DNA of 64,000 nt from positions 2,592,001 through 2,656,000 of the forward strand of contig OY776510.1 in NCBI GenBank assembly GCA_963675665.1, read 5' to 3'. The stretch is from Spirochaetia bacterium. Lineage in GTDB: Bacteria; Spirochaetota; Spirochaetia; UBA9216. Below, one piece after another: positions 62,558-64,000 of the stretch (positions within the stretch are counted from its first letter, which is position 1; the number at the start of each line of letters is the position of its first letter). A program made the translations under genes and the position numbers. The notes under the pieces are model-generated. The model was given only the letters and a program-made list of their open reading frames with translations, searched no databases and had not been told where the DNA came from.

Positions 62558-62624
62558 GCGCGTGCCCCGGACATTGACATCCGGATACGGCATGATATTA
62601 TTATATCTCCTGATGGAGGCAATT

Positions 62625-64000
62625 ATGAAAAAAACCTGCCGGTTATTAATTCTTGTCCTGGTATTGCTGCTTTGTTCAAGCATCCTTTTTGCCGAAGAGG
62701 CATCCGGCGGCGTCCCGGCTTCGTTCTGCTTCGATTTTTACCGGGCCGTCAGCTCTTCAGAAGAAAATATTCTATTTTCCCCGCTTAGTGTATCCATGGT
62801 GTTTTCAATGGTGCACGCAGGAACAGCCGGCAATACCGCGCAGCAGATCGCCCGGACCTTCGGTTTTAAACCTGACAGCAGTGAACAGGCGGAATACTAC
62901 AAGGGGATAATCGATTCCATCAGGCAGATAAACAGCGGAGACACGTCCCTTCTGCTTTCCAATTCATTGTGGCCGCAAAAAGGGGAAATTAATCCGGAAT
63001 ATACCAGGTTGATTGAAAATGTCTATCACGGGAGAATTTTCCCTGTTGACTACCGCAGCAATGCGCCTGCCGTAACTGAAGCAATTAATAAATATGTAAG
63101 AGAATCTACGGCGGGGAATATTAAACGGCTTCTAAAATACGATCTTGATTCCGAAACGGTATTCACCCTGCTTAACGTAATCTACTTCAAAGACAGCTGG
63201 TTATACCGGTTCAACGAATCCTCGAACATGGTTCTGGAATTTCATATCGATGAAGATCATTCGGTTGAGACAATTTTCATGCATCAGGAATCGCCGTTCA
63301 ACTATTATGAAGATGAGTTTTTCCAGGCGGTGGAGCTTCCATATAATACCGAACGGATCTCGATGCTGATCATTCTTCCGCGAGGCGGGGAAGACTTGCA
63401 GCGGATAGAGCAGGGCCTGTCGTTCGAACAGCTCGAAGGTGTGCTCGGCAAGAAGTGGAGTGAACCGGTTAGTCTTTACCTGCCCCGTTTTGAGCTTGAA
63501 TCAGATCTGGATTTGAAACTGATTCTCTCTTCAATGGGAATAACCGATGCTTTCAATCTTGCGAAGGCTGATTTCTCGAATATGAGCGGCGAGCGGCTCT
63601 GTATCGGCTTTGCAAAACATGCAGCACGAATAAAGGTAAATGAGGAAGGCTCGGAGGCGGCCGCAGCCACTGTTGCAGGCGGGTGTTTTCCGGCCGGCAC
63701 TCTTGTGCTTACCGCCGGAGGTCCTGTTCCAATCGAAGAGATTGAGCCGGGAACACCGGTGCGCAGCTTCAATTTCAAAAAAGACGTTTGGGAAGAAGCA
63801 GAGGTAACAGCCCTGCATCGCTTCGACAATAACGATGCCGGGGTAGAGCTGAGCATTGAGGGCAGCTTTATAAGAGCAACGAGTAACCATCCCTTCTATG
63901 TCCTTGAAGGAGAAGACCTGCAAACACGGAGATATCCGGCTGATATTTCTGATCCGGTTGATGACGCGGGATATGGCGGCAGATGGGTTGAAGCCGGAGA
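62625..64000 (+). CDS. Secreted serpin with a Hint (intein/BIL) domain in the reactive-centre loop; runs off the window
   Basis: GGAGG RBS, signal peptide, NILFSPLSV, LLNVIYFKDSW, ELPY..SMLIILP, LYLPRF, ADFSNM, hinge EEGSEAAAAT, then CFPAGTLV and ATSNHPFY; no stop codon up to 64000. Confidence 0.9.
   Translation, partial: MKKTCRLLILVLVLLLCSSILFAEEASGGVPASFCFDFYRAVSSSEENILFSPLSVSMVFSMVHAGTAGNTAQQIARTFGFKPDSSEQAEYYKGIIDSIRQINSGDTSLLLSNSLWPQKGEINPEYTRLIENVYHGRIFPVDYRSNAPAVTEAINKYVRESTAGNIKRLLKYDLDSETVFTLLNVIYFKDSWLYRFNESSNMVLEFHIDEDHSVETIFMHQESPFNYYEDEFFQAVELPYNTERISMLIILPRGGEDLQRIEQGLSFEQLEGVLGKKWSEPVSLYLPRFELESDLDLKLILSSMGITDAFNLAKADFSNMSGERLCIGFAKHAARIKVNEEGSEAAAATVAGGCFPAGTLVLTAGGPVPIEEIEPGTPVRSFNFKKDVWEEAEVTALHRFDNNDAGVELSIEGSFIRATSNHPFYVLEGEDLQTRRYPADISDPVDDAGYGGRWVEAG

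Follow-up and report, generated by a model that had tools for sequence, protein, structure and literature searches.

What becomes of a serpin whose reactive-centre loop carries a Hint domain, and what might such a domain do there? This question is raised by a gene that runs off the 3' end of the window, i.e., the whole stretch of 64,000 nucleotides of Spirochaetia DNA analyzed here. Serpins operate through a spring-loaded loop that can be used only once, Hint domains are single-turnover machines that rearrange peptide bonds, and in this gene the one is found inside the other. The initial annotation reported an open frame that starts at ATG 62625 and has no stop codon in the window; this proved correct, as positions 62625-64000 translate into 458 residues without a stop and in the list of open reading frames it lacks a 3' end. 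Read beyond position 64000 of the window, the contig extends the frame by 286 bases and completes a protein of 553 amino acids. The features of the locus are the following:

62574..62601 (+): promoter-like site, TTGACA, 16 nt, TATTAT, with a TG, located 24 nt upstream of the ATG and identified by consensus match alone
62625..64000 (+): serpin-Hint gene, codons 1-458 of 553, continuing to window-equivalent position 64283, with the stop codon at 64284-64286 (G000:C1:2654625-2656286)
62625..62693 (+): predicted signal peptide, approximately residues 1-23, with a basic N-terminus, a Leu-rich core and LFA before EE, read from the sequence by eye
62718..63683 (+): serpin residues 32-353, the body of the domain as far as P4 of the reactive-centre loop, from Pfam Serpin and PDB serpin alignments
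63642..63668 (+): hinge P17-P9, EEGSEAAAA, E340-A348, inhibitory type
63684-63686 (+): TGT codon of Cys354, the first Hint residue, P3 by hinge count
63684..64000 (+): N-terminal 105 residues of the Hint/BIL domain, the rest lying at window-equivalent positions 64001-64154, from HMM and 2LWY matches
63879..63890 (+): block B TxxH, T419-S-N-H422, read in the translation

The promoter-like hexamers match 11 of the 12 consensus positions (L002 575-602), and this site speaks for a start codon at ATG 62625 and not at the upstream GTG 62562. Relatives in an alignment of 31 sequences (A1) possess an N-terminal pattern like that of the predicted signal peptide. The neighbors in the window encode an HATPase protein, an S1 RNA-binding protein, a nitroreductase, a BcrAD/BadFG-DUF2229 activase, a DUF1847 protein and a solute-binding protein; no protease or partner gene is present among them. 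A search of the same genome for a second serpin found none, so that the gene is its sole serpin gene and has no Hint-less paralogue, and further copies of the Hint domain were likewise not found there.

The serpin itself is not truncated by its insert. The part encoded in the window already matches Pfam Serpin (PF00079) with an E-value of 6.1e-86 over residues 32-350, the same stretch to which PDB serpins align. For the full protein, the E-value is 8.2e-96 and the match is split into residues 32-350 and a C-terminal stretch. Model positions 4-329 are matched before the insert and positions 333-370 after it, and the serpin domain is therefore complete; the conserpin alignment, too, covers residues 32-349 and 516-548. 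The serpin strands for which the initial annotation had proposed to look downstream of the Hint domain were found as K511-K553, a run of 43 residues followed by the stop codon. Since these strands follow the Hint domain, we are dealing with a true insertion at P4/P3 and not with a fusion or a truncation.

The hinge of inhibitory serpins has Glu at P17, Gly at P15, Ser or Thr at P14, and small residues at P12-P9. The sequence E340-E-G-S-E-A-A-A-A348 satisfies this rule; E340, G342, A345 and A347 are invariant in alignment A1, and the inhibitory hinge is kept, together with the serpin core residues, in the Hint-bearing lineages. The gene product is an inhibitory-type serpin with predicted export. 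A continuous exposed loop that would offer P1-P1' to a protease is absent from the encoded product, in which 157 residues are inserted after P4.

These 157 residues (C354-N510) form the Hint domain, placed between P4 (Gly353) and the P' side of the loop. All sequence motifs that had been named for this frame (EEGSEAAAA, CFPAGTLVL, IRATSNHPFYV and RWVEAG) are present in the translation, codon 354 is indeed TGT, and counting from E340 as P17 puts Cys354 at P3, where it had been placed approximately. The central proposal, which puts a Hint domain into the reactive-centre loop of an inhibitory-type serpin bound for export, is borne out as well, with the serpin resuming after N510. The expected C-terminal His-Asn is likewise there (H509-N510), but the Cys, Ser or Thr anticipated behind it is not; the residue at +1 is Lys511.

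On the part encoded in the window, the Hint models score only 18-19 bits, under their cut-offs. On the complete sequence, PT-HINT (PF07591), the best-scoring Pfam Hint model, reaches 29.0 bits, its cut-off being 27.7, and covers residues 452-510 only, and TIGR01443 (intein_Cterm) reaches 19.9 against 15.6 over residues 487-510, whereas TIGR01445 stays below its cut-off (21.0 versus 24.5). The closest solved relative is a domain of the bacterial intein-like (BIL) type, 2LWY (E 9.4e-13; Hint residues 2-74 and 101-157), whose alignment ends at the same LVHN, and because of this relationship our Hint domain fits the type A BIL/PT-HINT kind. Type A BILs combine an N-terminal Cys with a C-terminal His-Asn and lack a +1 nucleophile, as set out in the relevant passages of PMC4031507. 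Judged by its sequence, we consider it highly probable that the gene product has this architecture and is catalytically competent.

In an AF2 model of the Hint-bearing serpin, residues 342-353 form a strand of high confidence, and most of the best PDB matches to the model are serpins in the latent or cleaved state; among the PDB structural matches are conserpin (5cdx) and miropin (5ncu/5ncw). We rejected this relaxed loop state as evidence because the loop is likewise inserted in a Hint-less serpin modeled identically (strand 368-381, pLDDT ~97), and AF2 is consequently uninformative on the state of the loop. The first 49 Hint residues have pLDDT values below 50, and the model provides no usable geometry of the Hint domain relative to the serpin.

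The serpin-Hint protein is not a one-off but a member of a recurrent family, in which two Hint lineages occupy two loop positions. The search for Serpin + Hint architectures that had been recommended recovered Serpin + PT-HINT in 35/91 matches of one search, and most relatives bear a precomputed PF07591 label. The family extends to dozens of sequences from several phyla, many of them from uncultured bacteria; the members with a known taxon name are a Spirochaetales MAG (P0012), Lacipirellula limnantheis (P0050) and an Anaerolineales MAG (L012). Seven loci were examined from contig and metagenome scans dominated by Hint-less serpins, and about four of these were short Hint-bearing loci (L012, L095, L096, L142). 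Among 38 Hint-bearing serpins that are 30-39% identical to our protein (alignment A2), C354, T419, H509 and N510 never vary, and at least 90% retain H422.

The residues bordering the insert tell us to whom they belong. None of the 34 serpin-borne copies of the Hint type present in our protein (type 1) has Cys, Ser or Thr at +1, and only 3/45 of a regex-parsed set do, none of them with Cys. Instead, a Lys occurs within +1 to +4 in 56/61 type-1 Hint copies, shifted to +3/+4 where +1 is Gly, and a Gly occupies -1 in 46/61. The same Hint module with the same Gly-Gly/Lys-Gly flanks is also found in unrelated secreted proteins, and these flanks should therefore be viewed as a property of the Hint module and not of the serpin. 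In the second Hint type, Cys1 follows P17 by 16-17 residues and is thus located at P1/P1', exactly the position at which a protease would cut. In the Hint tree, placing all serpin-borne Hints in a single clade is rejected; this finding, together with the differing insertion offsets, suggests that the reactive-centre loop was targeted by Hints more than once. Host-tree tests gave p-AU values of 0.215 for type-1 hosts as one clade and of 0.104 for all Hint-bearing hosts as one clade; only in the Hint tree is a single origin rejected. One AU test covered a 40-row subset of 86 rows.

How, then, might the two machines work together? Our best reading is that self-processing may control the protease trap, and we assign a probability of roughly 40% to the view that the loop is re-joined to give an active inhibitor. 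The precursor would be a masked pro-serpin whose bait loop bears a knob of 17 kDa. Once the protein is exported and folded, the Hint domain would convert the Gly353-Cys354 bond into a thioester, cyclization of Asn510 would cut it off Lys511, and an amine of Lys511, either its alpha-amine once freed, the route put forward for type A BILs, or that of the side chain, would attack the thioester. With the departure of the Hint domain, the loop would be re-joined with the length that bacterial serpins normally have, and the inhibitor would be armed. We count in favor of re-joining the architecture, the relationship to a BIL domain and the suggested repeated targeting of the loop, and further that the gene is the sole serpin gene of its genome, that the hinge is intact, and that the pattern of C354, T419, H422, H509 and N510 conservation would reflect selection on catalytic residues. 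The same may be said of the loop length: if the residues of the Hint domain are simply deducted, P17 and the conserved Pro of (D/N)(H/R)PF are 25-34 residues apart with a mode of 29 (13/45), and in Hint-less serpins they are 24-35 apart with a mode of 29 (28/133). However, this canonical length could be inherited instead of selected. Moreover, as the flanks travel with the Hint module (GG and KGxxE), the re-joined loop would contain a generic Gly-rich scar and not a tuned bait, and insertion of the spring-loaded loop, free once Asn510 cyclizes, may outrun the ligation.

The near-universal Lys at +1 to +4, in combination with Gly-Gly at -2/-1, suggests a ubiquitin-like variant of this chemistry, isopeptide splicing, which we regard as unlikely. 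Here, attack of the Lys side-chain amine on the Gly353 thioester would precede the cyclization of Asn510. It would form an isopeptide-branched intermediate that would keep the spring-loaded loop in one piece during the departure of the Hint domain, and the product would be an isopeptide-linked bait loop. Alternatively, the thioester would be retained to cross-link a target, which would make the protein a thioester-armed serpin.

The strongest competitor to re-joining is one that we take seriously without favoring it. A nick anywhere in a serpin loop is enough to make the loop insert, and a Hint domain that only cuts, through thioester hydrolysis at Gly353|Cys354, cyclization of Asn510, or both, would allow P15-P4 to insert into beta-sheet A, leaving a relaxed, hyperstable and non-inhibitory two-chain serpin. 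Such a protein could be a timer or a conformational switch, or it could serve for the release or presentation of the Hint domain. The missing +1 nucleophile and the P1/P1' position of Cys1 in the second Hint type speak for this scenario. So does a result that likewise counts against re-joining: the GGK scar that a gene for the spliced product would have was found in 0/265 unique Hint-less serpin loops. Passages in PMC7664689 and PMC4031507 further describe N- and C-cleaved products as the dominant ones for BIL domains, type A included, which again weighs against re-joining. Nevertheless, it is hard to see why a self-inactivating secreted protein should be kept with an intact hinge, in a deep clade, and as the only serpin of its genome; the loop length, with the Hint domain subtracted, also stays canonical, and the invariant His-Asn, although a family-wide Hint feature, would be needless if one N-terminal cut suffices.

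Less probable still, and rather doubtful, is a transfer in which an outside nucleophile resolves the Cys354 thioester, so that the serpin body would become attached, with Gly353 as the point of linkage, to a lipid, to the cell wall or to a target protein, in the manner of Hedgehog cholesterol transfer or of an inhibitor thioester of the alpha-2-macroglobulin type. Conservation of Cys1 and block B, the Gly at -1 suiting an accessible acyl donor, and the predicted export are compatible with such a reaction, and Hedgehog uses the first Hint step only, according to a passage in PMC7664689. It would not require the invariant His-Asn, however, and a sterol-recognition or other adduct-recruiting region is absent, as the serpin resumes directly after Asn510; nor is a partner gene nearby in the window, and the Hedgehog-type Pfam model Hint (PF01079) attains only 20.0 bits against its cut-off of 29.7. 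We hold it to be very unlikely that the Hint domain is non-processing and a permanent domain on the loop of a non-inhibitory serpin scaffold. Its long branch, with 1.47 changes per column and 45% as the best identity, the marginal Pfam and NCBIfam Hint scores, and a relative that has lost the block B His (L004) could be read in this way, but all catalytic residues are intact in our protein and invariant or nearly so in the 38 relatives, which is unexpected for a decayed domain.

Class 1 intein splicing via a branched intermediate at a +1 Cys, Ser or Thr, despite Cys1, TxxH, His-Asn and the TIGR01443 match, is contradicted by Lys511 and the 0/34 count, and also by a subthreshold Pfam Intein_splicing score (28.1 versus 35.8), the lack of an endonuclease and an exported host, so that of the earlier suggestion that splicing rebuilds the bait loop only a type A BIL or a Lys side-chain route survives.

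Our literature search found no paper on a natural serpin with a Hint domain in its bait loop. For serpin biology, the locus offers a possible built-in switch for activation or self-firing. For intein biology, it provides a natural host that gives a clear read-out of processing without a +1 nucleophile, namely a metastable inhibitor versus a relaxed, hyperstable protein. The role of type A BILs in native exported hosts and that of the conserved +1 Lys become directly testable, and the family is large enough for comparative work. If isopeptide splicing were true, Hint chemistry would gain a new reaction class, and the protein would be the first serpin that naturally arms itself. Furthermore, the Hint module could be put to use in engineered inhibitors as a mask that removes itself.

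Among known systems, the type A BILs (e.g., 2LWY) come closest, sharing with our protein the Hint fold, the N-terminal Cys, TxxH, His-Asn, the lack of a +1 nucleophile and, in the pertinent passages of PMC4031507, exported bacterial hosts. Our Hint domain differs from 2LWY by an extra segment of ~20 residues (~428-452) that is left unaligned, and from type A BILs by the near-fixed Lys and Gly of its flanks and by a host site that is a mechanistically critical spring-loaded loop instead of a variable linker. PT-HINT is the pretoxin Hint of polymorphic toxins and CdiA, and the papers that our literature search listed for it all concern toxin and CDI systems; in our protein, by contrast, no toxin domain follows the Hint domain and the serpin resumes. 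Bacterial inhibitory serpins such as miropin and conserpin share the full serpin domain, the inhibitory hinge, the signal peptide and, with the Hint domain subtracted, the normal loop length, but the bait loop of our protein is broken and no Hint-less paralogue accompanies it. Hedgehog/Hog proteins are set apart by an adduct-recruiting C-terminal region, where our Hint domain ends in His-Asn followed by the serpin. Members of the alpha-2-macroglobulin family have a bait region and a conformational trap along with a reactive thioester; their unrelated fold and their Cys-Gln side-chain thioester, as opposed to a backbone N-S shift, make this an analogy only. In conditional protein splicing, a host protein is inactive until the intervening Hint domain removes itself. 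Engineered intein switches would share this concept with the serpin described here, whose arrangement is, in contrast to theirs, natural, extracellular and without a +1 nucleophile.

The initial annotation had described an open frame from ATG 62625 without a stop in the window, and translation of 62625-64000 on the + strand gives the same 458 residues as a 3'-open ORF, with Cys354 encoded by the TGT codon at 63684-63686. In the genome sequence beyond the window end, 95 further codons lead to a stop at window-equivalent positions 64284-64286, giving a complete protein (P0002, the query of our searches) of 553 aa. Its N-terminal sequence looks like a signal peptide, in which (window 62634-62675, residues 4-17) ...LLLC17SS... 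is readable as a relaxed lipobox, with cleavage after LFA23 as the alternative. Our genome search found neither a second serpin nor a second copy of the Hint domain. The surroundings of the gene comprise:

Window 62574-62601: promoter-like site, 24 nt upstream of ATG 62625, strong (11/12 matches), a consensus match only.
Window-equivalent 65010-69212 (3011-7213 of L002, the 12-kb locus spanning the window end), - strand: 1400-aa protein with two BcrAD/BadFG ATPase stretches and DUF2229, CoA-enzyme activase type.

The 1400-aa protein, just downstream of the serpin gene, is followed by a DUF1847 gene; as far as we can see, it has no evident relation to the serpin.

In the complete protein, the hinge ...EEGSEAAAATVAGG is followed by C354...GALVHN510 and then by the serpin C-terminal signature, K511-DAQEES-PVMFYANRPFIFIIRDNLTGEIYFMGRLSKP.... 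Pfam Serpin matches the full protein in two stretches (E 8.2e-96; model positions 4-329 and 333-370 covered in the genome search), and conserpin (5cdx) aligns over residues 32-349 and 516-548. Since both match on either side, the Hint domain is a clean insertion with the serpin domain complete around it; the C-terminal strands that the initial annotation had envisaged behind the Hint domain are indeed present. Counting from E340, which we take to be P17 by alignment convention, Gly353 is P4 and Cys354 is P3, in line with the position of about P3 of the bait loop originally assigned to this Cys.

The assignment to the Hint family holds as well: PT-HINT (29.0 bits, cut-off 27.7) and TIGR01443 intein_Cterm (19.9, cut-off 15.6; residues 487-510) score above their cut-offs on the full protein, and Intein_splicing (28.1 bits, cut-off 35.8) and TIGR01445 intein_Nterm (21.0, cut-off 24.5) below theirs. 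The Hint segment alone matches 2lwy_A ('bacterial intein-like domain') with E 9.4e-13 over its residues 2-74 and 101-157, with the same LVHN end. The expected terminus of His-Asn followed by Cys, Ser or Thr stood in its first part (H509-N510), but the next residue is Lys511. According to the review PMC4031507, bacterial intein-like domains (BILs) have no +1 nucleophile, and type A BILs retain the C-terminal His-Asn, with splicing possible and cleavage dominant; the route proposed there begins with an N-terminal thioester, which, once Asn has cyclised, is attacked by the amine thereby released. These properties and this route are also given in PMC7664689, where 2lwy is listed as a BIL. With Cys1, T419-x-x-H422, H509-N510 and Lys511, the window's Hint domain fits, as judged from its sequence, the type A definition.

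We aligned 38 Hint-bearing serpins that share 30-39% identity with the query. None of them deviates at C354, F355, T419, P423, W454, D464, H509 or N510, and at least 90% retain H422. A regular-expression parse of a set of 235 proteins recovered 49 Hint-bearing serpins, 45 of them with both junctions. In type 1, that of the window, the Hint domain measures 156-162 aa and Cys1 lies 13-15 residues past P17; in type 2 the domain measures 136-138 aa and Cys1 lies 16-19 residues past P17, at P1/P1'. The +1 residue (n=45) is K in 26, G, A and I in 3 each, S, D and F in 2 each, and E, T, L and Y in 1 each, so that C/S/T occupies +1 in 3/45 and Cys in none. An HMM trained on these Hint domains finds the same module, sometimes in tandem, in hosts unrelated to serpins, namely DUF2330/ankyrin, vWA, RHS and Tim44-like proteins. 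Flanks were counted in 86 Hint domains at >= 90 bits (61 type-1-like, 25 type-2-like). For type-1-like copies in serpins and in other hosts, respectively, Lys is found at +1 in 28/34 and 18/27 and somewhere in +1..+4 in 32/34 and 24/27 (background Lys 5%), C/S/T at +1 in 0/34 and 2/27, and Gly at -1 in 29/34 and 17/27. The 25 type-2-like copies never have Lys at +1, have C/S/T there in 8 cases and Cys in +1..+3 in 15. As the GG / KGxxE flanks occur in serpins and other hosts, they belong to the mobile Hint module and not to the serpin loop.

Tandem arrays of the window's Hint type are present in P0054, P0056, P0060 (Tim44-like) and P0117, with spacers of 4-5 residues (HN-KGGGG-CFPAGT); P0117 contains three full copies. 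The type-2 serpins P0047, P0050 (from the planctomycete Lacipirellula limnantheis), P0052, P0055, P0057 and P0059 (about 680-780 aa) extend far beyond the serpin C-terminus, with GDxDxDGxVD-like motifs repeated in the extension, and P0048, a fragment of the same group, has a precomputed Dockerin_1 label. These features suggest anchoring on a surface complex.

Serpin+Hint architectures, which the initial annotation proposed to look for, were found repeatedly. In a word-indexed search with residues 330-553, 91 proteins among 3824 candidates matched at E <= 1e-3, and the precomputed Pfam labels list Serpin together with PT-HINT for 35 of the 91, counting the query itself. Exhaustive phmmer against 1.84 billion representatives gave 43,067 matches at E <= 1e-3, mainly ordinary serpins; the best 150 of these contain many more 50%-identity clusters matching via the Hint domain, some about 555-580 aa in length and others 650-1425 aa. 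Given this recurrence, the combination is not an assembly artefact. Its few named sources are a Spirochaetales MAG (P0012), L. limnantheis (P0050) and an Anaerolineales MAG (L012). Any match at all was found in 8/41 genomes of the window's own lineage: G023, of the same class, has a serpin with Hint (L004), and G025 a Hint-less serpin (L005). The serpin was found in none of five other same-genus genomes, four of which gave no match to the serpin query, and the same-genus genome G001 matched only via the Hint domain, at L006. Given how few lineage genomes match and the same-genus genomes without the serpin, the gene is patchily distributed.

L006 1186-3480, + strand: secreted 764-aa protein with a 157-aa Hint domain about 120 residues in and C-terminal ankyrin-like repeats.
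L004 933-2375, - strand: serpin+Hint protein of G023 with STGTQIF replacing ATGNHPF, the block B His and Pro being lost.

The L006 Hint domain, of the window's type and 42% identical to that of the window, is flanked by GG/C and HN/KGG (slash, junction), and its host resembles the DUF2330/ankyrin hosts of the same Hint type. The L004 Hint domain retains Cys1 as well as the His-Asn at its end, behind which GNGAKK follows, and may from its sequence be a naturally occurring variant whose N-terminal processing is impaired.

In a Hint tree (86 rows), the type-2 Hints of serpins cluster together (support 89) with a non-serpin Hint as sister (96), and type-1 serpin Hints are intermixed with non-serpin hosts; the query branch is long (1.47). 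For 40 of these 86 rows, an AU test rejected the hypothesis that the serpin-borne Hints are all monophyletic (delta lnL 102, p 0.00025), the tested group having been chosen after the first tree was seen. In the serpin-body tree (122 rows), the type-2 hosts form one clade (100) and 17 type-1 hosts another (97), nested in Hint-less serpins, with the query, P0093 and P0029 placed outside the latter (86). On a 50-row subset, neither a single clade of type-1 hosts (p 0.215) nor one of all Hint-bearing hosts (p 0.104) was rejected. We read these tree results, together with the differing insertion offsets and Hint lengths, as at least two separate entries of a Hint domain into the serpin bait loop; Hint domains may also have moved from serpins to other proteins.

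AF2 (38-sequence alignment) modeled the Hint-bearing serpin with a mean pLDDT of 80.9 and residues 342-353 as a confident strand; the first 49 Hint residues stayed below 50 and the remainder reached 54-90. The best Foldseek matches were mainly latent or cleaved serpins (among them 3nda, latent antithrombin chains, 5cdz, 1hle, 5ncu). A Hint-less control, P0180 (likewise a 38-sequence alignment), was also modeled loop-inserted (strand 368-381). Loop insertion is thus a habit of AF2, and we rejected the model as a guide to the real precursor state; such high-confidence latent-like models (me2c72c532d87, m4d57d7252ed1) are a warning against reading serpin states from predictions.

As to processing, Cys354 would form a thioester and Asn510 would cyclise, and we tentatively favor, with a probability of roughly 0.4, that the loop is subsequently re-joined. 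This is because the serpin has kept its core and its inhibitory hinge, the loop length is canonical, the genome has no other serpin, and type A BILs are reported able to splice. The length was obtained arithmetically, as the P17-to-Cys1 distance plus that from +1 to the Pro of (D/N)(H/R)PF, no joined sequence being built: it is 25-34 in Hint-bearing serpins (mode 29 in 13/45; query 29) and 24-35 in Hint-less ones (mode 29 in 28/133), so that exact Hint removal would give a loop of normal length. Adjacent Hint-less serpin gene pairs, or fused serpin pairs, occur on the metagenome contigs L115, L133 and L172.

Serpin loops are spring-loaded, which counts for scission only, a quite conceivable if somewhat doubtful outcome in which the loop would be cut and not re-joined. 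A GGK scar occurs in 0/265 unique Hint-less loops from the proteins and loci analysed, which speaks for scission and against a selected 'spliced product'; the type-2 Hints sit exactly at P1/P1', and cleavage is reported as dominant for BILs. The conserved Lys of the Hint flank varies in position, and the published alpha-amine route gives no account of it; for this reason we raise the idea, unlikely as it is, that a Lys side-chain amine attacks the Gly353 thioester before Asn510 cyclises, which would give an isopeptide link. Hand-off of the thioester is improbable, and an inert domain is distinctly improbable. The domain is not a classical intein, since it lacks the defining +1 Cys/Ser/Thr, and classical splicing can practically be dismissed.

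Among the openly accessible papers searched, we found none describing a serpin loop that contains a Hint domain. Of the listed papers pairing serpin with intein, none dealt with a natural serpin intein, the top match using an intein as purification tag; bacterial intein-like domains and serpins were paired only as separate proteins of a cellulosome; pairings of serpins with Hint domains were, by title, on other subjects, as were, by title and opening of the abstract, those of the reactive-centre loop with inteins; and PT-HINT / pretoxin HINT papers concerned, by their titles, toxin and CDI contexts. Serpin plus Hint is a real, recurrent combination of two well-known machines, undescribed in that literature and of high interest to the serpin and intein fields. 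Compared with the BIL structure 2lwy_A, the window's Hint domain carries about 25 extra residues in its middle.
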